Origin: Ostreococcus lucimarinus
Lineage: Eukaryota
Direction: 5' to 3' (one strand)
DNA: 64,000 nucleotides
Assembly: GCA_000092065.1 (NCBI GenBank)
Contig: CP000594.1
Within the stretch, counting starts at the first letter, position 1. The number at the start of each line of letters is the position of its first letter. Shown piece by piece: positions 6,355 through 53,723 of the stretch. A program made the translations under genes and the position numbers. The notes beneath the pieces are model-generated. The model searched no databases. It was given only the letters and a program-made list of their open reading frames with translations, and was not told the origin of the DNA.

Positions 6355-6537
6355 TTCATCACTATATTTTAATCTGTAGTCTGACGAAAGTTTTCGAAAT
6401 CATTCGCCTCGCCTCGCCCGAGCGCGCCTCGCCCGACCGCGCGGTTTGGGGGGGACTAAAAGTCGGTTAGACTTTACTACGCGTGGTGAAAATGAATCGT
6501 CGTGACCGCACATCTCGGCGCATCGCGCGCGCGCGCG

Positions 6538-9500
6538 ATGGATCTCGCGAAAACGATCCCAAAATGTCTCAACGACGCGCAAATCTCGTTGACGACGCAC
6601 AAGCGCGGCGCCAAGACGCTGTGCGCGGTGCGAAACGAAGACCCAGAGACGTTTTTACCGACGTTTTGTAACGCAATCTTGCCGGTTTTGCTCGAGTACA
6701 AGGTACGCTTGGACGCCGCGGCGACGCGCACGCGCGCGGACGATACGGTGTCGTCGTTCGTTGGATGTGGACGATCAGAGACGGCGGGAAACGCGCGTGT
6801 GAGATGCGAATGCGATGGAACGATGACGCCGGGACGCGGCGAGCGCGCGAGACGGGACGACGACTGACCGAACGCGGCGAACGCTCGAACGAGACGCAGC
6901 GAGACGTGTGCACCGAACGTGTCGTACGATTTATCGTCACCTTTTGCGCGTGGCGCGAGGAAGGAATGGAGGAAGACGCGGATGAGTTCAACGAGGCGTT
7001 TTTGGGATTTTTGCTCAACTTGCACGGAGCGAAGGACAAGGCGGTGCGATTCCGCGCGTGTCAAATCATCGCGGGTGTGCTGAATGGACTCGGTGCCGAC
7101 GCTGAGGTGAGCGATGAGTTGTATGAACGCATGACGGACGTGATGCTGGAGCGGATTCGGGATAAGATGCCGCCGGTGCGGGCGCAGGCGGCGCGAGCGC
7201 TGAGTCGTTTGCAAGACGGAGGGGAGACGCAAGATTTCTCGCAGGATGACATCACGCAAGCGTTCGTGGAGTTGCTCGGAAGCGAAAAGAACAAAGAGGT
7301 GCGAAAGGCGATTTTGGGCTCGCTCGCGATCTCTGATTACACGATTCCGTGCGTTGTAGAACGCACGCGGGACGTGGCGGAGGACGTTCGTCGCATCGCA
7401 TTTTTGGCGCTCACGTCCAAGGTGCCCGTCGAGTCGGTGTCTATCGCGCATCGTGCCTTGGTTTTGCGTCGAGGTTTGAATGATCGCGCACCCATGGTTC
7501 GAAGCGCGAGCGTCGAGATGCTCAAGCGATGGCTCGAAGCATTCCAGGGCGACGTCGTGAAATTCCTCACCGCGCTCGACGTCGAGTCCAACGAATCCGA
7601 AGCCGAGCTCGCGCTCAAGGAACTCATCACCATCGGTCGCATCAAGCCTATGGACGTGTGCAAAGACGTCGAGCTGGTGTCGAAAGGTTTGAAACGCGAC
7701 ATCGACGTCGACGGTCTCATGACGCCCGAAGAAGGGTTGTACTGGCGCGTCGTTTTGCAACATTTGGCCGAAGCCTCCGCCGTCAAGGGCGCAAATTCGG
7801 CGCAGTCGGTCGGTCAAGCGCGGGAAATCGCCGTCGCCGAAGTCGGTGAGATGATCGAAGCTATGGAATCGGCGTTACCGCCGACGGCGATGGATTTGCT
7901 GAGCATCGTGAGCTCGCACGCGAAGAGCGCGGAAGGGAAATTCGCGGCGAGACAACTCCTACCTCTTCTCAAATGCGTCGATCTGAACGACGGTGCGATT
8001 CGACGAGGCGCCATCAACTTGGTCGCTGAGCAGCTTCACGTCAAACCCGTGGTGAATTCGCACGGATCGTCGTACGCGTGCGGGGGTGATGGCAAGTGGG
8101 AGAGCGCGCTCGTCGAAATTGCTCGTCTCGTCGCCAACGATTCCACCGAATTCGCCGGTCTCGTTTTGGACGCCGCAGATTCTCTTCAAATGTCTGGTAC
8201 TGCCGAATCGCTCACGCAGGCGTTGTACATCGCGGGTTCTTTGCTCGAGCGCACGTCGAAGCGTTTACCATCCGTCGCCGCCGAAGCCGTGATGGACTCT
8301 TTGATCAAGCCCGCGGTGACGCACTCCACCACGGCGGTTCGCCGGGAATCGATGCGCGTGCTGGGTCTCTTACTCGCTTCTCAAGGCGTCATCAACCCTG
8401 ACGCGGTGGTGATTCTGCGAACGGCCTTAAGTGCCGATGCCGCGCCCGTTCGATGCATGGCGGCTCGCGCGCTCGGCGACGCAGCGCTTCTTCATGGTCC
8501 CGCGGCGCTGGACAAATATCGCGTCCTCGTCGATCCGGAGGATGAAGACGTCACTGAATCCGCATTCAACGCGAGTCTTCCTCTCGAGATTGCACTCATG
8601 AAGTGCCTCGATGAAGAAGGAAAACCATTTGTGTTCAAAGCGAACGCGTATGATTTGGAAGACGTAGATGTTGAAGACGTGGATGCCACCAAGGCCGCCG
8701 CGGCGGTGGAGGCGGAGGAAAGCGTCGGCACCGTCGCCGCGGAGTCGCTCTGCAAAATCATCCTTCGTCGCGGTGAAGGCGCGTTTGAAGCCGCTGCGGC
8801 GGTTGTCTCGCGATTGCTTGGCAGCTACTTTGCGGCGGATGCGCAGCGAAGACCGCGTCTCGCACAATGCTTGGCCGTCTTCTTCCCGGCGCTCGCAAGC
8901 GGGCCGGAGGATCGTCGACGCTTGCTCGCGGATTGCGCCCTGCCGGCTTTGCGCGCCGCGGCTAAGATCAAGGGCTTGTCGCGCGTCGCCGCCCTTCTCG
9001 TGCAACTTCTCACCGCGTCCGAAGAACCGACGGCGGGCGGCGCCGAACTCGCCCTCGCGTTGGCGAACGAATCTCTGGCGTTAAGCACGAAGCAAACGCC
9101 ATCTGGCGCGCAAGCACCGCTCGCCAAGGCGTACACCAACGCCATCGCTCGCGTGTTATCTGTCGTTCCAGTGAAATCCACGCGAGACGAAGTCGACGTC
9201 GCTGAAAAGGTCGAGCTGAACGACACGTTAACCAAGGCTTGGCACGCCGCCGTGCTCGCGGCGGAGCGAACAAAGGAAAAGTCTGCGGCCAAGGATTTGG
9301 CGATGGCGGCAGAACGTCTTCGCTCGAATTGCCTTGCGACACAAAAGACGGTGGCGCCCGAAACCGAAGGTAGCGAAGGAATCGCCGTTCCAGCGGATGA
9401 CGACGACTTATCGACGCAGATGAACGACGACGTTCGCGCCGCCGTGATGGAGTACGCAGAGGAGCTCGCCAACGGCGCTGACGTACCGTTTTGCGGTTCT

Positions 9501-9728: not shown

Positions 9729-10643
9729 TCAGTTCTTCTTCTGGCCACGCCTCAGCTTCATCAGCACGACCGGCGCGGAGACTTTAACGCGAATATCCAA
9801 CTGATCGAGATCGTGCCCTCCCTCGACTAACCCCCACTCCTCGATCTGCGCCTCCTCCTCGACGCGCGCCGCCGCGATGGCTTCATCCACCGTCAGCCCT
9901 CCTCGAAGCGTCTTCAAACTTATCAACAACGACTTCGTCGCCGCGCTCAGCGCGAACGCGCACGTCAGCTCCCACGGGCACATCGCGTGCAACCGCCGCC
10001 GCAGCACCTCCACCGTCTTCTCGCTCGTTCCCGGTCCAAAGATCGAATCCGACGTCTCCACCGGTCCGAACTCTCGCTCCGCCCACGCCACGATCGGATC
10101 GTGCGCCTTCGCCTGCCTCGCCGCCGTCGCCTCGTCCGGGCTTCGCACCCGCGTCGCGTCCGTGCCAAAGTATTTCAGCAGCGTCTCCACGTGCACCCGT
10201 CGCGTCTCCGCGTCTCCCATGTGATCGATCGCCGTCGCGCTCAGCGACGTCAGCGGCATCGTAAACGGCGCGATGCGTTCGCCCTGCGCGTCCCACTCCG
10301 CCGCGACCGCGCGCGCCAATCCCTCCGTCGCGAACGCGTACTCGTTTCGCTTCGGCGTTCGCAGCGCGCGCGCGTCGAGCTCGACGCGCCACGTCCCGTC
10401 GCGCGCGTCGCGTTCGCGCGCGTCGACGCGCTCGTAAAACCTCGGCGCCGTGCCGTCGGCGCCCATCGTCATCGCGACGCGCTCGGACGACGCCTCGCCG
10501 CGCGTGCGCCCGACGCGCTTCGCCGCCTCGGCGCGCGCGCGCAGCGACGCGCTGCGCGCGTCGCTCGCGTCGACGGGCGCTCGCGACGACGCCGCGCGTC
10601 TCAGCGCCGCTCGGACGCGATCGAGCGCGCGACGCGCGCGCAT
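9729..10643 (-). CDS. ATP12: ATP synthase mitochondrial F1 complex assembly factor 2 (ATP12/ATPAF2).
   Basis: ATG at 10643. RFYERVD....PFTMPLTSLSATAIDHMG...LTCAFALSAATKSLLISL is a typical ATP12 family sequence. Confidence 0.85.
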   Translation of the reverse strand: MRARRALDRVRAALRRAASSRAPVDASDARSASLRARAEAAKRVGRTRGEASSERVAMTMGADGTAPRFYERVDARERDARDGTWRVELDARALRTPKRNEYAFATEGLARAVAAEWDAQGERIAPFTMPLTSLSATAIDHMGDAETRRVHVETLLKYFGTDATRVRSPDEATAARQAKAHDPIVAWAEREFGPVETSDSIFGPGTSEKTVEVLRRRLHAMCPWELTCAFALSAATKSLLISLKTLRGGLTVDEAIAAARVEEEAQIEEWGLVEGGHDLDQLDIRVKVSAPVVLMKLRRGQKKN

Positions 10644-10703
10644 GGCGTCGCGATGTGCCGTCGCGATGCGCGCCGGCGCGCGCGGGCGTCACTCATTCGC
10701 GAC

Positions 10704-12413
10704 ATGTCGAGCGACGACGCGTTCGAGGACGCGTTGGACGACGCGCGCGACGACGCAGACGACGCCTCGAGCGACGACGCGCGATCGGACGCGTTCGAGG
10801 ACGCGCTCGGCGCGCACGCGGCGCGATTTCCGTTGCACCGCGCGGCGTTCGAGAACGACGTCGACGCGGTGCGAGCGCTGCTGGCGCGCGACGACGTCGA
10901 CGCGAACGCGCGCGACGACGCCGGGCACTGCGCGTTGCACGTCGCGGCGCTGAGGCGCGCGGTGGGGGCGACGCGGGCGCTGGCGGCGAGCGCGCGGGTG
11001 GCGACGGAGGCGCGAGACGCGAGGGGCTGGACGGCGACGCGGTTGGCGACGGATCGAAGGGCGCGCGCGTGCGTCAGAGCGCTCGTGGAGGCGAACAGAG
11101 CGAGAGAAAAGAGGTTGGCGCGAGAGATTCGACCGGAGATGGCGCGGGCGGTGGAGGGCGTGGGGGATTTTGAGACGCGCGCGGCGTGGCGGTTCGGTTC
11201 GCGAGTGTTGGCGCCTTTGATTAAGATGGTGGCGCCCAGAGACGCGTACGCGGTGACGTGCGTGGGGAAAAAGCTGAGAATCGACGGCGAGTTGAGAGGG
11301 ATCGATTCCGAGGCGTTGGTGCGGTCGATGATGCCGAAATGGCGACGAGGGAAGTTTAGCTTGATTTACGACGGCGACGCGGGCGAACGCGCGGCGCTTT
11401 GGTTCGTCGATCACGAATCGCGAGAGGTGGTGAACGCGATGGAAAAACCCACGAGACGGGACGGCGATGATGCCGACGCGGCGTCGACGAGCGATGCGCC
11501 GCCGCTCACGGAGGAGGAGATGATTGACGCGATCACGGACGCGTTGCTCGCCGAGGGTGCGGCGAAGAAGAAGGTGCGAACGGAGGGTTTCAAATTCGCA
11601 CCGGTGAAAGGATGGATCGCGGGAAAAGCCAGCGCGTGGATTGGAGGACGCAAGGCGGAAATTTGGGAGGCGACAGCGAAGCTGGCGCGCGAGACTGTGG
11701 CGCCGGGAGGGGGATTTAAACTCGACGGTTCGTTTGAGGAGTACGTGGAGAGCGCGAACGACGCGCGAGAAAACGTCGTCACGCGCGCACCTTTGGGCGA
11801 GTCTTCGAAAGATAAATCCGGGTTAAACATCGATGATAGTAAGGACATGCCACAGCGTCTTCGTAAGATGTCGGCGCGATGTTGGCTCGTGCGCGACTTC
11901 CCTTTAAAGGCGAGTCAGGCGTCGCAGATTTTGGACGTCTTGGAGCGTGCGAATAAAAACGCCGCGCACGTGAACCGCGTGGTGAAGTATTGGTGCTCAA
12001 ACCACGAAAACATGTTTCCGGTGAAGATCCAAGTCCCGCTTATGCTCACGATTTACGCCCAAGTGCAATTTAAAGATTTCAAAGCGCTCGACAAGCGCGC
12101 TCGGGAAGCCAAGTTGCGAGACGGCTTCTTCGAAATTCCGTCGGATTATCGCGTGAAATCTGTGGATGAGATGCTCGCTGAAGTGGAAGAGCGCGCAAAT
12201 CGTGACATGGAACGCATCGAGGCGCTGGATGAGTCGCTGGACGTCGATAACGAGACGGAAGAAATTCGACAGTTGCGCGTCGAACTAGAACGCCTGGCGA
12301 AAAACACGTCGGGCGAAGACGAAGGCGACGATGAATACGAGTTTGACGACGACGACGACGACGAAGACGAAGACGACGAAAACTTAGATGCCGATAGAAT
12401 GAATGTACGCTAG
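10704..12413 (+). CDS. Ankyrin repeat domain 13 (ANKRD13)-like protein: N-terminal ankyrin repeats, GPCR-chaperone domain, acidic C-terminal tail.
   Basis: ATG 10704. FPLHRAAFENDVDAVRALLAR...GHCALHVAAL (ankyrin). CWLVRDFPLKASQASQILDVLERANKNAAHVNRV...FPVKIQVPLMLTIYAQVQF matches the ANKRD13 conserved core (FPLSL...FPVKIEIPLFHV). The upstream part of ORF 9987.. is antisense to ATP12. Confidence 0.8.
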   Translation: MSSDDAFEDALDDARDDADDASSDDARSDAFEDALGAHAARFPLHRAAFENDVDAVRALLARDDVDANARDDAGHCALHVAALRRAVGATRALAASARVATEARDARGWTATRLATDRRARACVRALVEANRAREKRLAREIRPEMARAVEGVGDFETRAAWRFGSRVLAPLIKMVAPRDAYAVTCVGKKLRIDGELRGIDSEALVRSMMPKWRRGKFSLIYDGDAGERAALWFVDHESREVVNAMEKPTRRDGDDADAASTSDAPPLTEEEMIDAITDALLAEGAAKKKVRTEGFKFAPVKGWIAGKASAWIGGRKAEIWEATAKLARETVAPGGGFKLDGSFEEYVESANDARENVVTRAPLGESSKDKSGLNIDDSKDMPQRLRKMSARCWLVRDFPLKASQASQILDVLERANKNAAHVNRVVKYWCSNHENMFPVKIQVPLMLTIYAQVQFKDFKALDKRAREAKLRDGFFEIPSDYRVKSVDEMLAEVEERANRDMERIEALDESLDVDNETEEIRQLRVELERLAKNTSGEDEGDDEYEFDDDDDDEDEDDENLDADRMNVR

Positions 12414-12457
12414 AACTGTATAATTACACCTTACAACACGAGACGCATCACATCACG

Positions 12458-13159
12458 CTACCCGTTCGCGGCTTTGACGAGTTTCGCCTCGCCGTACGAT
12501 CCGTCAAAGTATCTCTCCAACAGAATGGCCGCGCTCGCCGAATCCAGCGCCCCGTTCTCGTTCGACCCCCCACTCGTCGCGATGCGTTCCGACGCTTCCT
12601 TACTCGTCCTAGACTCGTCGTACGTGTACACCACCAAAGCCTTCGTCTCGGCGTTCGTCGAACGCGCGCACGCGTCCGCCACCTCTCCCGCGAATCGAGC
12701 GCACACCGCGTGCATTTGCACCGCCCCTCTCCCGCGTCCGCGACGATCTTTCGCCGCCCTCCCCGGTGGCACCGGAATTCCAACCACGATTCTATCGCAG
12801 CATTCCTCCAGCGCGACGTCTAAGATGGCTCTGACCGTGCTCGTCGTCGTCGCCGTCCCGCTGTGCGTCAGCGTTCGCAGCGGCCGCGGCGCCGCGCCAC
12901 CGTTCGACACCGCCAGACCGACCCTGCGCGCGCCGTAATCCACCCCGAGCGCGATGACATCACCGCGCGCGCGTCTCGCCGCGCGTAACTCATCCTCGAG
13001 CGACGACGACGACGTTTGCGCGTCCGTGAAGGGCGCGCGGCGTTGAGAAAACCACGACGGGGACATCGCGCGCGCGACGCCTCTGTCGACGCCGTGGCGA
13101 CGCGCGCGCGACGAGGACGACGGTACGAGCGCGCGCGAGCCGTTCGCCGCGCGAAACAT
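12458..13159 (-). CDS. YqgF/RuvC-like (RNase H fold) putative pre-16S rRNA nuclease / Holliday-junction resolvase-like protein, probably organelle-targeted.
   Basis: ATG at 13159. LGVDYGARRVGLAVSN is the YqgF signature (G.D.G.+R.G.A.SD). Size and composition are consistent. Confidence 0.75.
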   Translation of the reverse strand: MFRAANGSRALVPSSSSRARRHGVDRGVARAMSPSWFSQRRAPFTDAQTSSSSLEDELRAARRARGDVIALGVDYGARRVGLAVSNGGAAPRPLRTLTHSGTATTTSTVRAILDVALEECCDRIVVGIPVPPGRAAKDRRGRGRGAVQMHAVCARFAGEVADACARSTNAETKALVVYTYDESRTSKEASERIATSGGSNENGALDSASAAILLERYFDGSYGEAKLVKAANG

Positions 13160-13309
13160 GGTTCGCGCGGTGATGCGCGGCGCGCGGGCGAGTGGCGCGT
13201 CGAGCGGCGGCGGCGAGAGGAATCGAGTGGAAGCGTACGCTCGCGACGAACGACCGCGGTGAATGAGGTGTGCTATTGAAATGAATAGAATCTAATGGCG
13301 CGGCGACGC

Positions 13310-15106
13310 TCACGCGCTGGAGGCGAAGAGTTGCGAAAACACGCGCTCTGCCCACGCCGGAATTTCCACGTCGTTTGCCTGCGTAAAGTTCACGAGCGGT
13401 TCCTGGACGTGATAACGAATCTTTCGACCCTTGCTCGCCTTGCGATCGACGTTTTTGCGACGTTTGATTTGTTTGGAGACGACGGAAGGTCCACCGGCGA
13501 CGCCGGCGTCGTTGCCGCTCTCGAGGAACTCTTTGAGGAGTTGCTCGTAAAAGTCGACGTCGTCGTAAAGCTCCGACTCGCGAGCCTCACCTTCGTCCAA
13601 GCCATCGACGTTGACGGTTTCGGCTTTGTTCTCGTCGTCATCGTCGGCTTCTTCGCTCCGCACGGCGGCGCGTCGCTCACCGACGCGAATCGGCGCGCTG
13701 CGCTTCGGCGGCTGCGACTTTTCAATCAAACGCGCGGGCGCGCGCATGGTGGACGATACTTGCTGAGAGATGGACTGGTTGAACGCCTTCAGACCGCCGC
13801 CCGCGCCTCCGCCGACCGCTTTACCCACGGAGACGGCGGATTTTCTGTACCATCGATCGCACGTCGAGTCGCGGTAGTTTGCGAACGCTCTGTATCCGGC
13901 GTCGTGCTTCGTCCACGCGTCGTCCAAGTCGTCGTCCACACCAATCACCGTAGCGTCCGCGCCGAGATTTGAGGTCGAGGCTATGTCGGCTATGTTCGCC
14001 ATCAACGCAGTTTGAAGCGCAGAGAGCGTTCGCATGGTCTTCCGTGCGACTTTGGATAACGTCTCGAACGATTCGCGCGTCTCGGGCGACGCGCGTTTCA
14101 GTCCTCGGCACGCCAACGCCGTCGGTAACTTGGCGGCTCCGGTCATGACTTTCTGCAAACGAATTCTCGCGTGTAGCGCACGCTCCCAAACCGTTCGTTG
14201 CGCGCGAACCGCCTTACCTTTCGAGACGTGCTGCGCCTTGGTGTCGACGAGCTTCTTCGTTTGTTCCTCCTCCTCGCGAAACGCTTGAAGCTCTCGAGCG
14301 AGATCTGCGTCGCCTTCCGTGGCGGCGCCCAACAAATCTCTCGCCCGCGCGCCCTGCGCGTCGAACTCATCGCTCTGATCCTCGTCGTCCTCGTCCTCGT
14401 CGTCCTCGTCGCCGCCGTTCCTTCGTCCGGATCCCGTCGCCGCGGCGTCTTCGTCGTACCCTTCGTACGCGTCGTCGTCCTCATCCGCGTACGGATCCTC
14501 ATCGCTCGCGTCCCCATCCTCCTCCGCACTTTCCTCGTCGTCGTCCCCGTCGTCCCCGTCGTCGTCGTCGCTCTCGTCCTCATCCGTCTCGCGCGCCGCC
14601 TCCGGTTCGTCCCGCGCGAAGTCCCGCCTCGACGCGCTTCGTCCCGCGTACTCCTCCCCCTCCATCTCGATCGGTCCTCGCATCCGCAACCGTCCGTCGT
14701 TCCCCCCCCCCGCGCGCACCGCGCGCTTTCCTCGCTCCCTCCCTCGCCTCGCCGCGCGTCCGCTCTCGCGATCGTCGCTCGAATCGTCGCCGAACCCGTC
14801 GCCCGCGTCGCGTCCCGCGTCGTCGTCCCACCCATCCTCGCTCCCGCTCTCGTCCTCGTCCAGCGCGCCCTCGATCGCGCGCAGCGCCTCGAACGCGCGT
14901 TTGCGCGCCTCTACCCCGCCCTCTGGCTCGAGCGCGCGCGCGCGCGCGTCGTCGTCGTCGTCGTCGCGCGTCGTCGCGCCGCCGCCGGCGTCCCCACCGC
15001 GCGTCGTCGCGCCGCGCGCGATCGCGTCCAGCCGCGCCATCGCGTCCGCGCGCGAGGGCGTGGACGAGGGCGACGCTTTCGCGCGTCTCCGCGGCGTCGC
15101 GCCCAT
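13310..15106 (-). CDS. AATF: AATF/Che-1/Bfr2 family nucleolar protein (AATF domain plus TRAUB domain), very acidic N-terminal half.
   Basis: ATG at 15106 (MGATPRR). The ORF-track start 15190 is a GTG. WERALHARIRLQK..., the C-terminal YDDVDFYEQLLKEFLE and PAWAERVFSQLF match AATF-Che1 and TRAUB domains. Confidence 0.8.
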   Translation of the reverse strand: MGATPRRRAKASPSSTPSRADAMARLDAIARGATTRGGDAGGGATTRDDDDDDARARALEPEGGVEARKRAFEALRAIEGALDEDESGSEDGWDDDAGRDAGDGFGDDSSDDRESGRAARRGRERGKRAVRAGGGNDGRLRMRGPIEMEGEEYAGRSASRRDFARDEPEAARETDEDESDDDDGDDGDDDEESAEEDGDASDEDPYADEDDDAYEGYDEDAAATGSGRRNGGDEDDEDEDDEDQSDEFDAQGARARDLLGAATEGDADLARELQAFREEEEQTKKLVDTKAQHVSKGKAVRAQRTVWERALHARIRLQKVMTGAAKLPTALACRGLKRASPETRESFETLSKVARKTMRTLSALQTALMANIADIASTSNLGADATVIGVDDDLDDAWTKHDAGYRAFANYRDSTCDRWYRKSAVSVGKAVGGGAGGGLKAFNQSISQQVSSTMRAPARLIEKSQPPKRSAPIRVGERRAAVRSEEADDDDENKAETVNVDGLDEGEARESELYDDVDFYEQLLKEFLESGNDAGVAGGPSVVSKQIKRRKNVDRKASKGRKIRYHVQEPLVNFTQANDVEIPAWAERVFSQLFASSA

Positions 15107-43979: not shown

Positions 43980-45494
43980 TTACGAGACGACGCAGCACCC
44001 CGGTTGGGCGTCGGGCTCGTTGGCGTACTTATCCACCATGGGTTCTAATTCAGCGATGATTTCCAAGAAACTCGGACGCTTTTTCACCAAAGGATCCCAC
44101 ATGCGAGCGACGAGGGCGGCGAGCTCGGGGGGCATGTAACCCTCACGAATGGGCGGCCGCAGGTTCTCCAGGCTCGCCGCCCTGCACGCGTCGACGGGAT
44201 TTCGACCGGCGAATGGTTGTTGGAAACTGAAGAGCTGGTAGTAAATCATCGATGCCGCGTACACGTCTACGGCTGGACCGTAGAACTCGTGGCGGAAAAC
44301 TTCTGGGGCCATGTATCGGTACGATCCGGTCTCGCCCGTCATGTTAAACGCTTGCGACATTTCTTGCGGAAGCTTGTTGCGCACCGACAACGTCTTGGAG
44401 AGGCCGAAATCACCAATCTTGAGCGTTCTATTCGCGGTCAACATCAAGTTTCCCGGCTTCAAATCACGATGAATCACGGGAAGAGGCGAGCGACCGTGAA
44501 GGTACGCCATTCCTCTCGCGCAATCGAGCGCCATCTTCGTCGATAGCTTCAGCGGAAAGATTTCGTCGTTTCTGAAGAGCGTCTCCAAGCTTCCACCCGA
44601 CATGTATTCGCTCACTATGGAAGTCAACCCGTCGTCGGAGACGGTGGTGCCCAGAAATTGCACGATGTGCGGATGATGCAGCTGCTGCATTATCTTCAGT
44701 TCCAATCTAAATTCCGCCTGCGCGACTTCGTCCGCGTTGAGGTGCTTGTGCAACTGCTTCAAGCACACGCGCGTGCCTCGCCACAAGCCGCTGTACACGA
44801 CACCGAACGCGCCGGCGCCGATTTCCGCGACGTTTGAGAACTCACCATCGGGAATTTCCCACGCCATCGTATCCGCCGGGAGCTGCGTATGGAACACCCC
44901 GGAAAGATGCGACTCCTCCAGCGGCACAAACGTGCCACTGACCCTGTCTTTGATCTTGGCGCCGTTCTTCGCGAGCATCTTCACCAAGTCGCTGTGATTA
45001 CCGTAGACCGCGCTTTCTAACGGCGTCGACCCCCATCTATCGACTGGATTGATCGTCACTCCAGATTTTACTAACCAGTCCGCCACCGCAAACGACCCCT
45101 CGCTCGCCGCGACGTGCAACGGCGTCCGATTGTCGTAGTCGCTGAAATTCTCGCTCGTAATCGTCTTCTTCGACCGCTCTAAAACTCGTTTCAAACGTTT
45201 CAAATTCCCCGTGGACGAGCAAAACAACAATTCACTGGTCAAGTGTCTCTCGGTGTACTGTAAAAACTTCGCCGTCCCGGGTTTATTCGTCGCGTCGTCC
45301 CCGCTCGTGGCGTCTCCGTCGCTGTGCCTTCCGAGCGAGCTGTCGTTGGTCAAGTCCTCGGTGCTGTCAAACTCACTCATATCGACCCGATACGGCGCCC
45401 GGATCCCCGGCGACGCGCCGACGGGTAACGCATCGTTCGCCATGCGCTGTCCACTGTCGCTGTCGAGGCTTTTACGCGGGCTCGCGGGCGCCAT
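43980..45494 (-). CDS. Ankyrin-repeat protein kinase (TKL/ILK-like serine/threonine kinase).
   Basis: ATG at 45494. Ankyrin repeats (TPLHVAASEGSFAVADWLVKSGVTINPVDRWGSTPLESAVYGNHSDLVKMLAKNGA), then kinase subdomains GAGAFGVVY...VCLKQL...HRDLKPGNLML...IGDFGLS...YMAPE. Confidence 0.85.
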   Translation of the reverse strand: MAPASPRKSLDSDSGQRMANDALPVGASPGIRAPYRVDMSEFDSTEDLTNDSSLGRHSDGDATSGDDATNKPGTAKFLQYTERHLTSELLFCSSTGNLKRLKRVLERSKKTITSENFSDYDNRTPLHVAASEGSFAVADWLVKSGVTINPVDRWGSTPLESAVYGNHSDLVKMLAKNGAKIKDRVSGTFVPLEESHLSGVFHTQLPADTMAWEIPDGEFSNVAEIGAGAFGVVYSGLWRGTRVCLKQLHKHLNADEVAQAEFRLELKIMQQLHHPHIVQFLGTTVSDDGLTSIVSEYMSGGSLETLFRNDEIFPLKLSTKMALDCARGMAYLHGRSPLPVIHRDLKPGNLMLTANRTLKIGDFGLSKTLSVRNKLPQEMSQAFNMTGETGSYRYMAPEVFRHEFYGPAVDVYAASMIYYQLFSFQQPFAGRNPVDACRAASLENLRPPIREGYMPPELAALVARMWDPLVKKRPSFLEIIAELEPMVDKYANEPDAQPGCCVVS

Positions 45495-45982
45495 TATTTC
45501 TTGCCGCCGTTATTTTAGGCTAGGTCTGCGAATGCCGCGACGACGACGACGACGACGGCGGCGCGACGCGCGCGCGCGCGATGCGGCGAGCGACGCCGCG
45601 GACGATGCGCGCGCGCGCGTTCGCGCGACCTCACGCGGTTCGACGCGCGGTGGCGTTCGTGAGAGCGCGACCGAGGGCGTCGACCACGCGGCGGCGGACG
45701 ACGAATGCGGTTCGACGCGGGACGGCGCGCGGTCGGAGATTTCCAGACTGCGGGCGCGATCGACGCGCGCGAACGCGCCTCGCGGAGGGAGATGCCGCGG
45801 ACGCGAGCGCGCTTCGAAAGACGAAAGACGAAATATGAAAGCGAGAAGTCTAGGGAAATCGTGTATTTAATCGAAGAATCAGAATGCGTCGAGAAGATGA
45901 GCGGACGAGAAGGGCGCGGCGCGGCGGGCGCCGAGTCAAAGTCGAAGCGCTCGAGCGGGACCTAGTGCGCGGTTGCCGGCGA

Positions 45983-48706
45983 TCACGCCAGCTTTTCCCC
46001 GCAAAACATGTAGTGCGTCGGGCGATAAGGCGTGTACGGCACGCGCCCTTCCTCTTCGGCGTAGTACACGGTCTTGTAGTCCTCGTTCGACAACAACCAC
46101 TTGCGGTGTTCTTTGTTGAAGAAGACGCCGTCCATGGCGAACCACCACTTATATAATCGCTGATCCCAGGATCGCTCTCTACCCTCGCGAGTGACGAAAT
46201 CAATCAACGCTAGGTTACCACCAGGGGCGACCAAATCACTCATGGTCTTCAACGCCTTCTTCCAATCGGGAATCATCGTCAAGCAGTACGAGCACGTCAC
46301 CAAATCCGCTTGCTTGGGCAACTTCTTCTTCACCGCGGCGCTGTTGATGTCACCCTCCACGAAGACCACTTGAGGCGCGAGACCGAGCTCCATCACGCGT
46401 TCGCGCGCCATTTCAAGTAGGGCGTCAGATAAATCGCACAAGTACACCTTGGTGTTGCACTTTCTCACGTGACCGACGACGAACTCAACGTCGCGCGCCG
46501 TGCCGCAGCCGACAGAAATCCAAGTCTTCGGTTCTTTCGCCCACGGAATGACGTGGCGCATGAACAAATCACGAGCGGGTAACAACGCCTCGCGGAAACC
46601 GTCGTAGTTCTTGCCCTGTTTCTTGTAGAACTCGCGCACATCCTTCACTTTGCTCAAGCCTTGCTTTGCCATCGCCAACATAACCGAGACATCCGCCCCG
46701 AACGAGTTCGTGAACGTGCGACCGCTGCCCTTTTGCACGATCATCTCCGGATTATAGTTTTTCGGCGTAGGCGCGATAAACTGCGTGAGATACCAGCCAA
46801 CGCGATCGTAATCTGGTACTAGAGTTCCATCGAGATGCGCGAGCACCGGAGAGTGCACGCAATCGGCGAACGAACGCCAAAAGATGCGACCCTTTTCCTT
46901 ATCCATGTTCGCCACCACCTTTGAAATGTTCTCCGCAATCATCTCCGCCGGCATCCAGTCCATGGAATCGAGCAGCGAAGCGATGGTGATCGAGCCCGGG
47001 CCTTCGCGAACGGCGGCATCAGCCCAGGTACCGTGGAAGAGGTCGACGCGGTCGACTCTCTTCTTCAGGTTGGTAAAGTTCTTCTTCTCCAAGTAGCGCG
47101 GGCAGCAATCGGGAGCGAATTCACCGACGATGTAGCCGTAGTAGAAGTAGTTATTAGGCTTCCACACACGCACCTTGAGGACTTCCACCAAGCGATCGGC
47201 GAACACCTCCGGGTTGCGGCTCAACAAGTTGAGTTGCTCGAGAGGCACGCCGCCTAGCGGCGCGATCCAACTCCACAAGAACGTCATCGAGCACAACTTC
47301 AACGTCAACCAGAAAAAGATGCCGCCCGGACTATCTTCAAACTGTTCGCGGTTCATCACGCGTCTGCGCATGCCCGACAGGCGCAGCGGAAAGCACAAAA
47401 TTTTCGCCATCAGACCAGACGTGCCGGCGTACATGAAGTTGTCTCGGAACAAGTTGTGATTGTCATCCCAAAACTCAGCGGTTTCGGGCTTGAGCAGCGG
47501 GCGTAACTTGGACTCGTAGACAGATGTGAACACTTTGTAGTTCGAGCGACCCCAAATGTCGAAGAACTGCTCCCAGTTCAACGCACGAATGCACGCCAGC
47601 TTGAGCTCGAGGGTGTGCAACTGCGCGGCGTTCATGTCGACGGCGATGATCTTCTTCGGACCTTGGCACAGGTAGTCCAGAACGTTGCAGCCAGCGGAAG
47701 AGATCGTCAGAACCACGTCTTGGTCGTTCATGTGCATCACCTTGTGATCGACCGCGGGATCTTCCCAAGAAATATTGTAGATGATTTTCTTGCGGCCGAT
47801 GGACGTCATGATGAAGTTTTGCGTGTACACATCGTGCACAACGACGCCAAAACGATACATAAAGATCAAGAGAATGGTCGCGTGCATGACAATAATTGGG
47901 ACCGACGGCGGCTGAGTGTACTTGGTGTAAACCAAGTCGTACGCCGCGTAGGCGTGCGCCATCGTGTTCGCCGCCAACATCATCGCGAAGAGCACGAGCT
48001 TCCCCTTGAAAGGCATGCGCTTACGACCGTGCGAACGCATCAAGTATCCACGAACCCAACGCTGGAACTCTTTTACGTGCAGCATTAACAGACTGAGGCC
48101 GACGGTGAACACAAGAGTAGAGAACTGCGCCGCCTTGTAAATCAACACCGTGTGGAACACGATGCGGGTGAGAAAGTACAAGACGCCAAACAGCAAGCTC
48201 GGTCGCTGCTTGTTTTGCACTTCGTGGAACGCCAACAACATGATCGGCAGCTCTTCCACGAGCGCAATGGCAAACAAGGACGTGAGACCGTCGTGAATCA
48301 AGTATGCGCACACCGCGATGTACAAAAAGTGGTGCGTCCAGCCGTCGTCGTACGTCAGCAAGTTTTCGTAGTGCATGCTGCCGAGAAACAAGTCCATGAT
48401 GCAGTAACCGATGAAGAATATAGCGGCGTATCGCGACAAATCCGTTTCGTTGTCAATCGTCGCCGTGAACCCGTCGTGGCAGACGTGGTAAAACAAGTAC
48501 AACCCGACGAAGGATGTGACAAAGGACGAGTACAGCGTCAAGTACCACGAGTGATCGGGAAGCTTTAAGAAGCGCAAAAAGTAGTACACGAACGCGCACG
48601 CGATCATGTTCGACCCTAAGAGTATCATATCATTACCAGAAAATCGCACGTTCTCCGCCAAGAACTGCGCCATCTGCGCCGACGCCGTCGCGATTTGAGC
48701 CACCAT
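45983..48706 (-). CDS. BTA1: Betaine lipid (DGTS) synthase BTA1-like: BtaA-like (DUF3419) domain plus C-terminal SAM-methyltransferase (BtaB-like) domain, preceded by a ~330-aa N-terminal polytopic membrane domain.
   Basis: ATG at 48706. The N-terminus has multiple hydrophobic helices with a HH motif (DDGWTHHFLYIAVCAYLIHDG). IYNISWEDPAVDHKVMHMNDQDVVLTISSAGCNVLDY is the BtaA/DUF3419 hallmark. The C-terminus VGCGTARDVEF...LVTCSYCLTMIP is a class-I methyltransferase fold. Confidence 0.8.
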   Translation of the reverse strand: MVAQIATASAQMAQFLAENVRFSGNDMILLGSNMIACAFVYYFLRFLKLPDHSWYLTLYSSFVTSFVGLYLFYHVCHDGFTATIDNETDLSRYAAIFFIGYCIMDLFLGSMHYENLLTYDDGWTHHFLYIAVCAYLIHDGLTSLFAIALVEELPIMLLAFHEVQNKQRPSLLFGVLYFLTRIVFHTVLIYKAAQFSTLVFTVGLSLLMLHVKEFQRWVRGYLMRSHGRKRMPFKGKLVLFAMMLAANTMAHAYAAYDLVYTKYTQPPSVPIIVMHATILLIFMYRFGVVVHDVYTQNFIMTSIGRKKIIYNISWEDPAVDHKVMHMNDQDVVLTISSAGCNVLDYLCQGPKKIIAVDMNAAQLHTLELKLACIRALNWEQFFDIWGRSNYKVFTSVYESKLRPLLKPETAEFWDDNHNLFRDNFMYAGTSGLMAKILCFPLRLSGMRRRVMNREQFEDSPGGIFFWLTLKLCSMTFLWSWIAPLGGVPLEQLNLLSRNPEVFADRLVEVLKVRVWKPNNYFYYGYIVGEFAPDCCPRYLEKKNFTNLKKRVDRVDLFHGTWADAAVREGPGSITIASLLDSMDWMPAEMIAENISKVVANMDKEKGRIFWRSFADCVHSPVLAHLDGTLVPDYDRVGWYLTQFIAPTPKNYNPEMIVQKGSGRTFTNSFGADVSVMLAMAKQGLSKVKDVREFYKKQGKNYDGFREALLPARDLFMRHVIPWAKEPKTWISVGCGTARDVEFVVGHVRKCNTKVYLCDLSDALLEMARERVMELGLAPQVVFVEGDINSAAVKKKLPKQADLVTCSYCLTMIPDWKKALKTMSDLVAPGGNLALIDFVTREGRERSWDQRLYKWWFAMDGVFFNKEHRKWLLSNEDYKTVYYAEEEGRVPYTPYRPTHYMFCGEKLA

Positions 48707-49349
48707 GTCGAGCGTCTCCTTCGTCTCCTACGAGCGCGTCAAAAATCACCACACGTCAGTCGATGCGCCATGATCAACGCCTTCCTCGCTGGCAGATCCA
48801 TCATTCTATGCGTTCACATCGCAGCCATCGCTCGCTCGTTCGCCACGATGGAATTTCCCTCGCATCCTCGCCCGCGCGTTCGCGAGATCGCCCGTCACTA
48901 TCCACAAGCGCCTCGCCGCGAGCCGTCCCGGTCCCCGCCGCGCCCGTTCGCGTCCATTCGCGCGTCCGAGTCCACTCGAGCGTTTCGAGCGCGCGTCTTT
49001 CGCGCGTTTCCCCGACGCGCGCGCGCGCGCGTCCACCGTGGACGCCGCACCGCGCGCGAACGCGTCGCATATTCCATCGGCGCGAACTTTTCGACGGCGA
49101 CCGATCGTCGTCGTCGTCGCGCGCGCGTCGTCGCGTCGCGTCGCATCGCTCGACGCACCGATGACTCGAACGCGTGCGCCCCGACGCGTCCGCACGACCG
49201 AGCGTCGTCGACTGCGGTGACGTCGCGCGTCTCGAAAGATGTGTTCGATGACGCGCACGAACCGGCCGCGCGTCGCCCGCTGTTTGATTATTTGGTTTTC
49301 GCGGCCGCGCGAGAAGGACGAGGCGACTACATACTCTTACAAATGCGCG

Positions 49350-49973
49350 CTAAAACGACGACGAAGGCGCGTCCCAAGCGGTGGTGGTGACGACCGTCCA
49401 TCCCGCGCGCGCGGGCGCGCACGCGCGGCGAACGAGCGAGGCCAAGTCTTCGGCGACGCGCGCGGCGGCGCGCTTGGGCGGCGGGCGCGCGAACTCTCGC
49501 GAGACGACGCTCGAGCGTTCGGTGGAAGCCGCGTCGACGGCGACGCGCACGAACACTCTCGGGACGCTTCCAGCGTATGATTCCGCCCACGCCGCGTTCG
49601 TGCTCACGTCGCGGACGCAGAGCGCGAAATCTCGCAGGCACTCGAGCGAGGCGCCGGGCGGCGCGCGGGCGGCGGCGTCCACGGCGGCGTCGAGCTTGTC
49701 TTTCAGACCGTCGCACAGACAGCATCCGGGCTTGGTGTACACCACGATGGTGTTCGCGGCGACGTCATCGTGCGCGCCGTCGTCCTCGTCGTCGTCGCGT
49801 GCGAATCCGTCGTCCGCGCGCGCGCGCGTCGTCGGTCGGCGCGTGGACATTCGCACGTGCACTCGAACCGTCGCGCTCGGACGCGCTCGAGACGCTCGAG
49901 ACGCGCGAGATGCGCGAGACGTCGACGCGTCGAGCGTGCGGGACGCCGCGACGTCGACTCGGGCGAGGGACAT
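49350..49973 (-). CDS. Glutaredoxin-like (DUF836 / Grx2-family thioredoxin-fold) protein with Ser/Arg-rich putative transit peptide.
   Basis: Candidate ATGs at 49973 and 49850. VVYTKPGCCLCDGLKDKL is the DUF836 CxxC motif. The track start 50135 is upstream low-complexity. Confidence 0.55.
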   Translation of the reverse strand: MSLARVDVAASRTLDASTSRASRASRASRARPSATVRVHVRMSTRRPTTRARADDGFARDDDEDDGAHDDVAANTIVVYTKPGCCLCDGLKDKLDAAVDAAARAPPGASLECLRDFALCVRDVSTNAAWAESYAGSVPRVFVRVAVDAASTERSSVVSREFARPPPKRAAARVAEDLASLVRRACAPARAGWTVVTTTAWDAPSSSF

Positions 49974-50202
49974 CGCGAGTCGAACGACGCGGCGTCGCGA
50001 AGTGTCGTACGCGCCGCGCGGCGGTTGGCGAGCGCGGGCGTCGCCGGCGGCGTTCTGCGACGGACGCGACGGGCGGGATTCGCGATGTGGGTGCGATTCA
50101 CGATGTGTATCAACATAACATACACGTACGCCCACATCGCAAGGTGGTGAGTGGATGGCTAAGAAATCCTAAGAGATTGTGAACGAGCGCGAGCTCGCTC
50201 GT

Positions 50203-51063
50203 TTACTTCTTCGCGCCCTTCTTCTTCGCCGCTCGCGCCTTAATCTCACGGAGCGCCGCATCACGCGCCGCGGCGCGCACTTCCGGCTTTTCGTTACGCT
50301 TCTTCGCGAGCACCTGTGAAGTTGCGGTGATGATCACCACTCGTCAGTCTCTCGTTCGCGTCGGTTCGCCTCGCGATTTGAAACCCTCGCCGCGCGACGC
50401 GTCGCGTTCGTCGATGCATCCATCGATCGCGACGGCCGCCCTGACCGTGCGTCGACGACCGCATCGCCTTGCCTCGCGCTCGACTCCACCCATAGTCATC
50501 GCGCGCCGTCCATTCGACGTCTCTCCGCGCGCGTCGCTCGTCGTCGACGCACCTCCAAGGAAGCCCCAACCAAAGATCGCGTGAACGCGCTCTTGTTCAC
50601 CCGTCGCTTCTTCGTGCGAGTGCTAGCTTCGATGTCCTGCGTCGCGAAAACGAAATAATATCCAGTCAATCATCGACGTCACTCGATCGCGCGATCATCG
50701 CCGCGCGCGTCGGTCGTCGCGAACGACGATCGTTCGCCGAAGCCCTAACGACGATCGCCGATGGCTGGTGCGCGCGCTCGCACGCCGCGCGCGCGTTCTC
50801 CCGCGCCTCGCGCGCGCGCGAGCGAGAGAGGTGAAATATTCGACATCGATCCCTCGTCGCGTCGTCCTCCTCACCTTCTTGTGCGCCTTGCGGTACGTCG
50901 TCGTCCACGCCAACTTGGCGGGTTTCTTCTTTTGCGCGTGCATCTTCTTCGACTTGCCGTTCAGGAACAGGAACGTCGTGGAGTCGATCTTCGTCAGGCG
51001 CGTGCCGTGGCCGGGGTAGACGCGCAGCCCGCTGAACGCGCACTTCTCGGTCTTGAGCACCAT
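50203..51063 (-). CDS. RPL24: 60S ribosomal protein L24 (eL24). Three exons on the minus strand: 50875..51063, 50553..50636, 50203..50313.
   Basis: Spliced product is MVLKTEKCAFSGLRVYPGHGTRLTKIDSTTFLFLNGKSKKMHAQKKKPAKLAWTTTYRKAHKK|DIEASTRTKKRRVNKSAFTRSLVGASLE|VLAKKRNEKPEVRAAARDAALREIKARAAKKKGAKK. Donors are GTGAGG and GTGCGT; acceptors are GACGCAG and TTCACAG. Confidence 0.85.
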
Positions 51064-51284
51064 GACGTCGGCGGTTCGCTCGCGTCGCGGAGAGACGGTC
51101 TGGCGACGACGCGCGGGGCGTCCGTCGAGCGGTCACGTGCGCGCCTCGGGACGGGGTTTTGTGGTCCGTGTGACGCGCGACTGGTCGACCGGTCGAGTCT
51201 CGCGCCGACCGACGGTTCGTCACCGTCCGTCGCGCGTCGTCGTCGCGCGCGCGCTCGACGTCGAATCGCGCGGGCGAGGCGCGA

Positions 51285-53723
51285 ATGCGAGCGATCGCTC
51301 GAATGGTGCTCGCGGTGGCCGGTGCGGTGATCCTGGCGCGTCGCGCGAACGCGCCGAAGGGGCGAAGATTGTCGCGGACGAGGACGAAGACGCGCGGCGA
51401 ACGCGCGGCGGCGACGAAGGAAAGCGGCGACGGGGGGGGCGAGCGAGGGCGAGACGACGACGTGAACGATGCGGAGGACGCGAACGCGCGGCGCGCGTAC
51501 GCGGACGACGCGAACGCGCCGGAGAAACCTCGAGCGAGGCGCGAGACGCGTCTCGTAAAGTTTGGCGTCGTCGAGGGCGAGAACCGCGGCGAGGACGCGA
51601 TGGATCCAGCGCGGACGATAGAGGACGATTTGTTTTGGTTGCGAGACGACGAACGGAAGAGCGATGAGATTTTAAAGCACTTGGAGCGGGAAAATGCGTA
51701 CACGGAAGCGCACACTGAACATCTGAAAAAATTGGAGACGAAGATTTACGAAGAAATCATCGCGACGATTGAAGAGACGGATGTGGACGTGCGCTTCGCG
51801 TGGGGCGATCGTCACGAGTATTGGGTCAAGACGCAAAAGGGCAAGGCGTATCCGATCATTTATCGATGCGAGCGCGCGAATGGAAAGCACGTGGAGAAGG
51901 TTTTGGACGTCAACGAGGTCGCCGCCGAGATGAAGTATTGCTCGCTCGGCGGGTTCAAGCCGTCGCCCACGCACGACGTGTTAGCGTATGCCATCGACGC
52001 CACGGGGTTCGAAACGTACACGGTTCGGTTCAAGGACTTGAATACGAATGAGCTCTTGGACGACGTCCTCGAGGGATGCGCGGGCGGCGTGAGCTGGGGA
52101 GGCGGCGTCAATCGCGAGGTGTATTACTCGACGATGGACGACGCTCATCGCCCGGACAAGGTGTGGCGCCACACCATGGGAACGCCGCAATCGAGCGACG
52201 TGTGCGTGCTCGAAGAGCCTGACGAGTTGTTTAACGTCGGGTTCTCGCGAACGTCGAGCGGACGATACATGATGCTCGAGTCTGAATCCACGGAAGAAAA
52301 CGAGTGTTATGTCATCGATTTGGACGCCGCGGACGCGGCGCCGGATGTGCGTCTTGTGCAAAAGCGATCGCCACTCCATCGGTACTACTTGGAACATCGA
52401 GGCGATACGTTTTACGTGCTGACGAACAAGGACGAGAAGATAAATTTCGAGCTCTTGATGACGCCCGTCGACGCCTTAGGGCAAGACAACTGGGTGCCAG
52501 TCGTCGACGGCGCCGGCGCGCCGGTGTTCGCGTACGACGATAAACGCACGCTCGAAAGTTTCTTCGCCTGTAAGAACCACCTCGTCATCGATGGTCGCGA
52601 AAACGGCTTCAGCGCGATGTGGGTCGTGCGTCTGAGCGAGGAAAGCGGCGAGGTGGTCGACTGGCACAAGACGGAGTGGCCGAGCGAAAACGCCCTCGTG
52701 TACCCAAGCGTCGCCGGTGAGACGCTTCGATGTGTCGGCGCCAATCAAGTGTGGGACACAAACGAGATTTACGTGTCGTATTCCTCGCTCAATCAGCCGC
52801 GCACAGTGTACAAGTACGACATGAACACCAAGTCAAAGAAGGAGATGAAAAAGACTCCGGTGAAGGGCTTCGATACGAGTAAGTATACAACGATGCGACT
52901 CGAAGTCACCGCGCGCGACGGCGTCAAGGTTCCGGTGTCCATCGCGTTTAAAACGAATTTGCGAGCGCACCGAGGACCACTGTTGTTGGAGGGTTACGGC
53001 TCTTACGGTATAAGCAACGATCCGGCTTTCATGCGCACGGCGGTGCCGCTTATGGACCGCGGCGTTACCATCGCTATAGCGCACATTCGTGGTGGTGGAG
53101 AGATGGGACGCGAGTGGTACGAGAAGCAAGGCAAGTACTTCACTAAGCTCAACACGTTTCATGATTTCATCGACGTCGCCGAACATTTAGTGAGCACGGG
53201 GTGGACACAACCGAGCAAACTCGCGATTAGCGGTCGGAGCGCCGGCGGTTTGCTCATGGGGGCCACGCTCAACATGCGGCCGGACTTATTCCGATGCGTC
53301 GTTGCGGGCGTTCCGTTTGTGGACGTCATGGTGTCCATGTGCGATCCCTCGATTCCCTTGACCACGGGCGAGTGGCTGGAGTGGGGTAATCCGAACGTCG
53401 AGAAATATTTCGATTACATGATGAAGTACGCGCCTATGGAAAACATACGACCCATGGAGGTTGCCCCGGATGTGCTCATCACCGCGGGATTGTACGATCC
53501 GCGCGTCGCGTATTGGGAATCCGCCAAGTACGCCGCTCGTTTGCGCGATGCCGTCAAAAATGGTGCGCGCGTGTTGCTCAAGACAGATCTCAGCGCCGGT
53601 CACTTCAGCGCGAGCGACAGATATCAGCACTTCAAGCAAACCGCGTTCGAGCACGCGTTTACGCTCGAATGCCTCGGGCTCGCCGGTAAGAACGTCGCCC
53701 CGAAATGGATCTCATCAAAGTAG
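51285..53723 (+). CDS. Oligopeptidase B (protease II, prolyl-oligopeptidase family S9A) with N-terminal extension (possible targeting peptide).
   Basis: ATG 51285; the conserved core starts near MDPARTIEDDLFWLRDDER (51600). The C-terminal catalytic domain has GRSAGGLLMG (Ser nucleophile GxSxGG), ...DPRV...GHF. Confidence 0.85.
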   Translation: MRAIARMVLAVAGAVILARRANAPKGRRLSRTRTKTRGERAAATKESGDGGGERGRDDDVNDAEDANARRAYADDANAPEKPRARRETRLVKFGVVEGENRGEDAMDPARTIEDDLFWLRDDERKSDEILKHLERENAYTEAHTEHLKKLETKIYEEIIATIEETDVDVRFAWGDRHEYWVKTQKGKAYPIIYRCERANGKHVEKVLDVNEVAAEMKYCSLGGFKPSPTHDVLAYAIDATGFETYTVRFKDLNTNELLDDVLEGCAGGVSWGGGVNREVYYSTMDDAHRPDKVWRHTMGTPQSSDVCVLEEPDELFNVGFSRTSSGRYMMLESESTEENECYVIDLDAADAAPDVRLVQKRSPLHRYYLEHRGDTFYVLTNKDEKINFELLMTPVDALGQDNWVPVVDGAGAPVFAYDDKRTLESFFACKNHLVIDGRENGFSAMWVVRLSEESGEVVDWHKTEWPSENALVYPSVAGETLRCVGANQVWDTNEIYVSYSSLNQPRTVYKYDMNTKSKKEMKKTPVKGFDTSKYTTMRLEVTARDGVKVPVSIAFKTNLRAHRGPLLLEGYGSYGISNDPAFMRTAVPLMDRGVTIAIAHIRGGGEMGREWYEKQGKYFTKLNTFHDFIDVAEHLVSTGWTQPSKLAISGRSAGGLLMGATLNMRPDLFRCVVAGVPFVDVMVSMCDPSIPLTTGEWLEWGNPNVEKYFDYMMKYAPMENIRPMEVAPDVLITAGLYDPRVAYWESAKYAARLRDAVKNGARVLLKTDLSAGHFSASDRYQHFKQTAFEHAFTLECLGLAGKNVAPKWISSK

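Follow-up and report, generated by a model that had tools for sequence, protein, structure and literature searches.

The DNA analysed here, a window of 64,000 nucleotides (nt) from Ostreococcus lucimarinus (assembly GCA_000092065.1, contig CP000594.1), contains a complete gene for a three-part betaine-lipid synthase at positions 45983..48706 (minus strand, as are all features named below; 907 amino acids plus stop codon). The product consists of a TLC-like membrane domain, a BtaA-like domain and a BtaB-like domain. The gene family is known; the TLC-like N-domain is the new part. It is very likely that this is a single three-domain gene with a TLC-fold N-domain, and the N-domain belongs, as a divergent branch, to the TLC superfamily (ceramide synthase/TLCD/CLN8 fold) and has kept the catalytic signature. 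Taken as a whole, the protein can with good confidence be read as a genuine betaine-lipid synthase of the marine type-A kind in the endoplasmic reticulum (ER) membrane, with a probably working TLC-type module. No paper discussing an N-terminal TLC-like domain of BTA1 was found, and literature searches pairing diacylglyceryl hydroxymethyl-trimethyl-β-alanine (DGTA) or BTA1 with the TLC domain returned nothing; an earlier mention in Murakami 2018 or in the 2025 Prog Lipid Res review on betaine lipids is possible. Traces of the domain exist in automated annotation: the UniRef entry for a fragment of the Emiliania ortholog bears the name 'TLC domain-containing protein', and two orthologs carry a precomputed match to PF03798, the Pfam TLC model.

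The open reading frame (ORF) is uninterrupted from its ATG, and an in-frame stop codon directly upstream leaves no possibility of a 5′ extension. The G+C content at third codon positions (GC3) is uniform over all three parts of the coding sequence (0.68-0.82). A Pfam scan of the 907-residue protein assigned residues 306-615 (46862..47791) to DUF3419 (PF11899, BtaA-like; E 1.8e-75), and several models of class-I S-adenosylmethionine (SAM)-dependent methyltransferases matched residues ~719-875 with E values from 1e-12 to 6e-15. This BtaB-like part (46082..46552), with GCGTARD at residues 733-739, is separated from the BtaA-like part by a conserved inter-domain region (residues 616-718; 46553..46861). 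NCBIfam reported generic UbiE-like methyltransferase similarity only, far under its cut-offs. In the BtaA-like part, YN-SWEDP, SxG-N-LDY and D357 are invariant across 31 orthologs. By its BtaA-like domain, its BtaB-like domain and its homology to an enzyme experimentally shown to make diacylglyceryl-trimethylhomoserine (DGTS), the protein is of the BTA1 type. The original prediction for this locus had described one ORF of 907 residues at 45983-48706 with a BtaA/DUF3419-like middle domain and a C-terminal class-I SAM methyltransferase, all of which these results bear out; the motifs that it quoted were likewise found in the protein, namely IYNISWEDPAVD (residues 309-320), LTISSAGCNVLDY (residues 333-345), VGCGTARD (residues 732-739) and an HH pair in the N-domain (H125-H126).

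That all three parts belong to one gene is indicated by several kinds of data. Public assemblies contain the identical 907-residue protein as one called gene in 910 blocks; the contigs reach 220 kb, and the flanking genes are those of the window (a glutaredoxin-like gene upstream and an ankyrin-kinase gene downstream). Searching with the whole protein gave 81 homologs; about 55 of them have 880-1070 residues, with alignments spanning 94-100% of the query. Named homologs include Bathycoccus prasinos, Cymbomonas, chlorarachniophytes (Bigelowiella, Norrisiella, Amorphochlora), dictyochophytes (Dictyocha, Pseudopedinella), Chrysophaeum, the pelagophyte Chrysoreinhardia, and Emiliania huxleyi. A complete TLC-BtaA-BtaB protein of 953 residues (P0132) was also found in Chromosphaera perkinsii, a non-photosynthetic ichthyosporean related to animals, and the architecture is therefore not confined to algae. 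Several homologs come as complete ORFs from MMETSP transcriptomes, and all three parts are therefore carried on one mRNA in the lineages concerned, four in number besides that of the window. The full-length AlphaFold2 model reached a predicted local distance difference test score (pLDDT) of 87.0 and a predicted template modelling score (pTM) of 0.80. In it, the last membrane helix (269-304) is joined to the BtaA-like domain by only ~12 residues, which contain the invariant YN-SWEDP, and the junction DVYTxxFIMxAI-x4-IIYNISWEDP ranks among the best-conserved stretches of the protein. In a neighbor-joining tree (computed without support values), the fused N-domains (57/57) formed an exclusive clade relative to 97 standalone relatives, which fits a single ancient fusion.

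Four shorter eukaryotic homologs (on contigs L001, L002, L003 and L004) were checked for an N-domain upstream on their contigs. The two-domain appearance was rejected for the L001 ortholog, where the N-domain lies upstream, split across frames; for the L002 ortholog (P0068, 700 residues), where it lies upstream in the same frame, interrupted by one TGA; and for the L004 ortholog, whose gene begins inside the N-domain. On L002 (nt 159-1211), the in-frame TGA falls within a non-conserved insert of ~50 residues in the loop after the TLC core. The contig is metatranscriptomic, and the insert probably represents an intron that was not spliced out; it caused the truncated gene call of 700 residues. 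For the short form on L003 (P0070), no N-domain match was found in the 278 nt upstream. The seemingly two-domain P0048 (632 residues) clusters with a member of 916 residues.

A Pfam scan gave no match for residues 1-305 of the window protein. Hydropathy analysis placed about seven segments above threshold within residues 26-291, and the AlphaFold2 model has an N-terminal amphipathic helix followed by nine long helices between residues 24 and 303. The original prediction of an extra polytopic N-terminal domain of ~330 residues with ~7-8 hydrophobic helices was right as to the polytopic domain; the length is nearer 304 residues, and the number of helices was slightly under-counted relative to the model. 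The amphipathic helix (2-19) and transmembrane helix TM1 (24-46) occupy residues 1-51 (48554..48706), with a predicted lumenal N-terminus. They are followed by a six-helix TLC-like core, TM2-TM7 (residues 52-223; 48038..48553), and by residues 224-304 (47795..48037), which comprise a Lys/Arg-rich cytosolic loop (224-232), TM8 (233-262) and TM9 with its helix extension (269-304). TM8 and TM9 connect the TLC-like barrel to the BtaA-like domain, and only the part from TM9 onward is common with MgBTA1 of Microchloropsis. In a one-dimensional topology analysis, two Lys/Arg-rich loops (164-170 and 224-232) lie on one side of the membrane; given nine TM passes, the N-terminus is inferred to be lumenal and both SAM-dependent domains would be cytosolic. 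The same analysis puts the conserved polar residues into the middle-to-cytosolic half of the barrel, a topology matching that of the ceramide synthases (CerS), where acyl-CoA enters from the cytoplasm. An IQ-motif match at residues 214-226 was below threshold and within the basic juxtamembrane stretch, and was dismissed.

The family to which the N-domain belongs was addressed by an exhaustive profile search of 1.84 billion representative proteins, in which 1084 proteins scored E <= 1e-3, with 805 of them reaching E <= 1e-10. The non-fused matches are mostly standalone proteins of ~220-350 residues covering profile positions ~20-237. Two of ten sampled standalone relatives (P0142, P0144) pass the curated threshold of the Pfam TLC model over nearly its full length; among the fused orthologous N-domains, 4 of 32 match this model (best E 5.1e-06), and the window copy gives no hit. 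The fused and standalone alignments matched each other in hhalign with a probability of 100% (E 2.4e-51) over window residues 23-227 (48026-48640), and the window N-domain matched the standalone profile with E 3e-49. Its fold is a six-helix TLC barrel. The TLC/ceramide-synthase-like appearance that had been noted for this region is supported by the fold, by the family links to Pfam TLC and by the conserved signature described below. The standalone proteins share their invariant D, HH, E, P, R, H, H and W with the fused N-domains; they differ in having neither a BtaA/BtaB fusion nor TM8-TM9, and E151 is variable in them. All named standalone members are from chytrid fungi and are annotated as hypothetical (e.g. 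Polychytrium XP_052970733 and Phlyctochytrium KAJ3103223). Chytrid proteins, namely P0167 (Phlyctochytrium KAJ3103223, 751 residues) and P0169 (Chytridiales, 777 residues), show the TLC-like domain in other fusions as well, for example after DUF4436; recruitment of the barrel into multidomain proteins has therefore happened in more than one setting. In Polychytrium (L014, nt 10001-14227), a standalone TLC-like gene adjoins a gene for a DHHC palmitoyltransferase, possibly by coincidence. A word-indexed search with the N-domain alone recovered only fragments of the same fusion, and a further homolog search with the full-length alignment added no new named taxa. Chance profile matches in the PDB to WRB and a V-ATPase subunit, obtained with both the N-domain and the standalone profiles, were rejected.

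In an alignment of 32 diverse fused N-domains, W54, T57, D105, H126, E151, P154, R181, H185 and H210 are invariant, and H125 and E152 are conserved at 90% or more; the invariant polar or charged residues lie inside hydrophobic helices. A signature of the TLC superfamily is a His-His pair on the third core helix juxtaposed to Glu or Asp on the fourth, and H117/H118 and E145 of TLCD1 are equivalent to H211/H212 and D239 of CerS6 (PMC11838393). The ping-pong reaction of CerS6 passes through an acyl-imidazole intermediate at His211, and His212 is indispensable; Asp239 and Asp242 are on TM5, Arg275 follows TM6, and Asn315 is on TM7, where the N315H mutant is active (PMC11919693). Along the sequence, the N-domain shows the same arrangement: HH lies on core helix three and E151/E152 on core helix four, and these residues are retained in 55-57 of 57 copies. 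In counts from 57 fused and 99 standalone copies, D105 on TM3, the second core helix (48392..48394), is present in 57/57 and 98/99. H125-H126 on TM4 (48329..48334) are candidate equivalents of CerS6 H211/H212, H125 being kept in 55/57 fused and 99/99 standalone copies and H126 in all copies of both groups (57/57 and 99/99). Of the pair E151-E152 on TM5, the fourth core helix (48251..48256), E151 is fixed only in the fusions (57/57 against 29/99), and E152 (55/57 and 98/99) is a candidate equivalent of TLCD1 E145 and CerS6 D239; P154 follows with 57/57 and 94/99. On TM6 (R181...H185; 48152..48166), R181 (57/57 and 99/99) is a candidate equivalent of CerS6 R275, and H185 is kept in 57/57 and 87/99. 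H210 (57/57 and 92/99; 48077..48079) is on TM7, the same helix as CerS6 N315. Together, D105, H125/H126, E152, R181, H185 and H210 make up a buried polar group whose conservation is nearly absolute. For comparison, CerS6 and Lac1 sequences were taken from a PDB search that used a CerS2-like sequence as bait, and only as bait. The hhalign comparison with this two-sequence CerS profile was insignificant (E 0.38); the alignment is colinear and pairs H125/H126 with H211/H212, E151/E152 with H238/D239 and R181 with R275 of CerS6, which can be taken as a hint only.

Among characterised TLC proteins, human CerS6 and the yeast Lac1/Lag1 (PF03798) share 10-14% identity with the N-domain without a significant sequence or profile match. 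Unlike them, the N-domain has no Hox-like domain, carries EE in place of the Lag1p D..D and is fused to SAM-dependent domains, and a sphingoid-base substrate is not to be expected for it. Classification as a ceramide synthase proper (Lag1/CerS) was rejected on the missing CerS profile match in the PDB, the hhalign E value of 0.38 and the EE standing for the HDxxD pair. As a functional analogy, we favour TLCD1/TLCD2 and CLN8, which are small TLC barrels with an HH + Glu signature, a likeness that refers to the published signature and not to an alignment. The spacing from HH to Glu is 27-28 residues in TLCD1 and 26-27 in the N-domain (to E152); TLCD1/TLCD2 and CLN8 differ in being standalone proteins.

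The reference among functionally studied enzymes is MgBTA1 of Microchloropsis gaditana (Naga_100016g36), which was located by its published cloning primers and made DGTS in tobacco and Arabidopsis (bioRxiv 10.1101/2024.07.11.603045). Its forward primer matches two metagenome contigs exactly, and the gene on one of them (L008) ends ...GKSKAQ, as the reverse primer requires. There, the BtaA-like domain begins ~70 residues into the ORF after a single hydrophobic helix, and unfiltered profile searches in six frames, including 4 kb upstream on L008, detected no TLC-like domain on either contig. BLASTP aligned the window protein with MgBTA1 over ~630 residues from window residue 271, in TM9, with 34% identity (E 1e-98). 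Both type-A proteins have the order BtaA-like then BtaB-like and the motifs YN-SWEDP and GxGTARD in common; MgBTA1 has a short N-terminal region with one TM helix, whereas the window protein has ~270 extra residues (TM1, barrel and TM8). Because the validated MgBTA1 does without it, the TLC-like domain is not required for DGTS synthesis, and by sequence comparison residues ~1-270 are an addition specific to this BTA1 sub-type. The type-B BTA1 of Chlamydomonas, Chlorella and fungi and the bacterial BtaA + BtaB perform the same two chemistries, but with the domains in the opposite order or as separate proteins, with ~28-33% identity in the BtaA part and no TLC-like domain; type-B enzymes are described as BtaB+BtaA only (PMC8752610). 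In the bacterial BtaA-BtaB fusions examined, no TLC-like domain was present. One of these (P0078; L005, nt 4922-8208) directly follows two GT4 glycosyltransferase ORFs and precedes a metallophosphatase, a gene group that looks like a phosphate-starvation lipid-remodelling cluster. The expectation that known BTA1 enzymes are two-domain proteins holds for MgBTA1 and the bacterial fusions, and the window gene is a three-part one. Orthologs of BTA1 from Mamiellales already appear in published phylogenies, drawn as two-box BtaA-BtaB proteins (PMC10685587, PMC8752610), and the O. tauri ortholog ostta15g02860 was detected by proteomics under P deprivation, when betaine lipids rise (PMC7407893).

It is established that BtaA moves the 3-amino-3-carboxypropyl group from SAM onto the sn-3 hydroxyl of diacylglycerol and that three methylations by BtaB then give DGTS (Riekhof et al. 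2005, per PMC10685587). In the mechanism that we propose, the first ~230 residues would form a divergent TLC-superfamily barrel, followed by two linker TM helices, and both SAM-dependent domains would dock on the cytosolic mouth of this barrel. The BtaA part would transfer the aminocarboxypropyl group of SAM to diacylglycerol, and the BtaB part would trimethylate this product to DGTS. The TLC-like module may act as an acyl-CoA-dependent ping-pong O-acyltransferase with a His acyl-enzyme, as in CerS6, TLCD1 and CLN8, on a lyso- or deacylated betaine-lipid intermediate, and acyl transfer would then couple head-group synthesis to acyl remodelling. We lean towards a ligand-binding or catalytic function of the domain's own, and acyl transfer is put forward as a tentative assignment of that function. 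We know of no identified lyso-betaine-lipid acyltransferase. As regards related activities, O-acylation of glycerol-based substrates is known or proposed for TLC proteins: CLN8 acylates glycerophosphoglycerol (bioRxiv 10.64898/2025.12.18.695077), TLCD1 has been proposed to acylate lyso-phosphatidylethanolamine (PMC11838393), and betaine lipids are regarded as acyl-editing hubs (PMC9892843). Ceramide-synthase-style N-acylation of the free amine of the BtaA product was set aside, as it would compete with the fused methyltransferase.

Several observations weigh against a synthase with a working TLC-type module. A Foldseek search of the PDB gave no significant match and did not rank CerS, the profiles of both the N-domain and the standalone family miss CerS in the PDB, and the window's own N-domain does not reach the Pfam TLC model. 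The mapping of residues onto CerS6 relies on the insignificant hhalign comparison, and H125, the proposed equivalent of the nucleophile, is replaced in 2/57 fused copies. Conservation of the TLC core is 33%, compared with 52% for BtaA and 54% for BtaB. The standalone family is without a functionally characterised member, and no BtaA/BtaB genes were found in the inspected gene neighbourhoods of the standalone relatives. Finally, PtBTA1 of Phaeodactylum, which may or may not carry the TLC-like domain, made a lipid reported as DGTS in tobacco; its sequence (primer-derived MIASLKS.../...GEEKKTD) was not found among the homolog proteins collected.

The faster evolution of the TLC core and the loss of H125 would also suit a degenerate barrel that merely fixes the enzyme to the ER and perhaps guides diacylglycerol to the BtaA site, an alternative that we consider unlikely but to be reckoned with. 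It is in line with the fact that bacterial fusions and MgBTA1 carry out the BtaA/BtaB chemistry without a third domain and that some TLC proteins, the TRAMs, are not known as enzymes (PMC11838393). The TLC-like module is nevertheless probably no passive anchor, because a single TM helix is enough for anchoring in MgBTA1 of Microchloropsis. Moreover, 55-57 of the 57 fused copies retain seven buried residues that are polar or charged, and the 99 standalone relatives have them at the same positions. The fused copies come from green algae, haptophytes, stramenopiles, rhizarians and an ichthyosporean, and a passive anchor would hardly account for such conservation.

We rate as improbable that the TLC-like domain turns DGTS into DGTA or finishes this conversion, by head-group rearrangement or by the accompanying reacylation. 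The enzyme of this conversion is not known (PMC10685587), and the classical model comprises decarboxylation/recarboxylation of the head group together with deacylation/reacylation (PMC6383925). The only betaine lipid that O. tauri is reported to contain is DGTA, and the window gene is orthologous to the one BTA1-like protein reported for that species (PMC7407893). The domain is lacking in Microchloropsis, which is DGTS-only. Fusion-bearing haptophytes, pelagophytes and dictyochophytes are regarded as producers of DGTA or diacylglyceryl carboxyhydroxymethylcholine (DGCC). Against such a role, the chemistry of the TLC family is acyl transfer and not rearrangement of a carbon skeleton, and the type-B Bta1 with which Cryptococcus makes DGTA carries no fused TLC domain (PMC6383925). 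The likewise fusion-bearing chlorarachniophytes are regarded as producers of DGTS, for which a literature search on Bigelowiella and DGTS found nothing; the taxon correlation is built on few data points. The PtBTA1 product in tobacco (bioRxiv 10.1101/2024.07.11.603045) also counts against it, as Phaeodactylum is a DGTA-assigned diatom; this point is soft, since the isobaric DGTS and DGTA are difficult to tell apart (PMC5063337) and PtBTA1 may or may not carry the domain.

An annotation or assembly artefact, in which an adjacent TLC-like membrane protein gene and a two-domain BTA1 are read as one ORF, is extremely improbable: gene callers do split some orthologs into an upstream ORF and a protein of ~640-700 residues, but these splits come from frameshifts, a probable retained intron or contig ends, and the mis-join that the original prediction had offered as an alternative is rejected by the uninterrupted ORF with its uniform GC3, the 910 identical calls, the complete transcript-derived orthologs of four other lineages, the highly conserved junction and the full-length pTM.

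Immediately upstream of the synthase gene lies the glutaredoxin-like gene (49350-50135; PF05768; contains CCLCDG), and its downstream neighbour (43980-45494) encodes a protein of 504 residues with ankyrin repeats followed by a protein kinase domain of the Ser/Thr/Tyr type. Synteny of the synthase gene with the glutaredoxin-like gene is kept on metagenome contigs of up to 220 kb, and the ankyrin-kinase gene is also syntenic with it on metagenome contigs. The G+C content is 0.68-0.73 at positions 45500-46000, 49000-50000 and 51000-51500, compared with ~0.55 in the synthase coding sequence. These high-GC stretches give rise to many overlapping Arg-rich ORFs on both strands, which are almost certainly spurious.

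When phosphorus is scarce, marine phytoplankton use betaine lipids in place of phospholipids, and much of their long-chain omega-3 fatty acid content resides in these lipids. To our knowledge, no enzyme has been assigned to two steps of betaine-lipid metabolism: turning DGTS into DGTA, and the acylation/deacylation behind acyl editing. The betaine-lipid synthases of Mamiellophyceae, haptophytes, pelagophytes, dictyochophytes, chlorarachniophytes and one ichthyosporean contain a domain of the ceramide-synthase fold with an intact acyltransferase-type signature, which is absent from the DGTS-only eustigmatophyte enzyme, and the published two-box BtaA-BtaB schemes leave out one third of the protein. 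Through the profile matches at E <= 1e-10, the finding further connects over 800 standalone eukaryotic proteins, so far uncharacterised, with the superfamily of TLC acyltransferases. In the boldest version, which is quite unlikely, the TLC-like domain would be the missing DGTS-to-DGTA enzyme or the reacylating half of that enzyme system, making the fusion a self-contained DGTA synthase; if true, this would explain why Ostreococcus accumulates DGTA without detectable DGTS. In a milder version, the domain may be the first lyso-betaine-lipid acyltransferase to be identified, a long-sought enzyme of acyl editing in betaine lipids. The gene is a concrete candidate for DGTA formation and betaine-lipid acyl editing.

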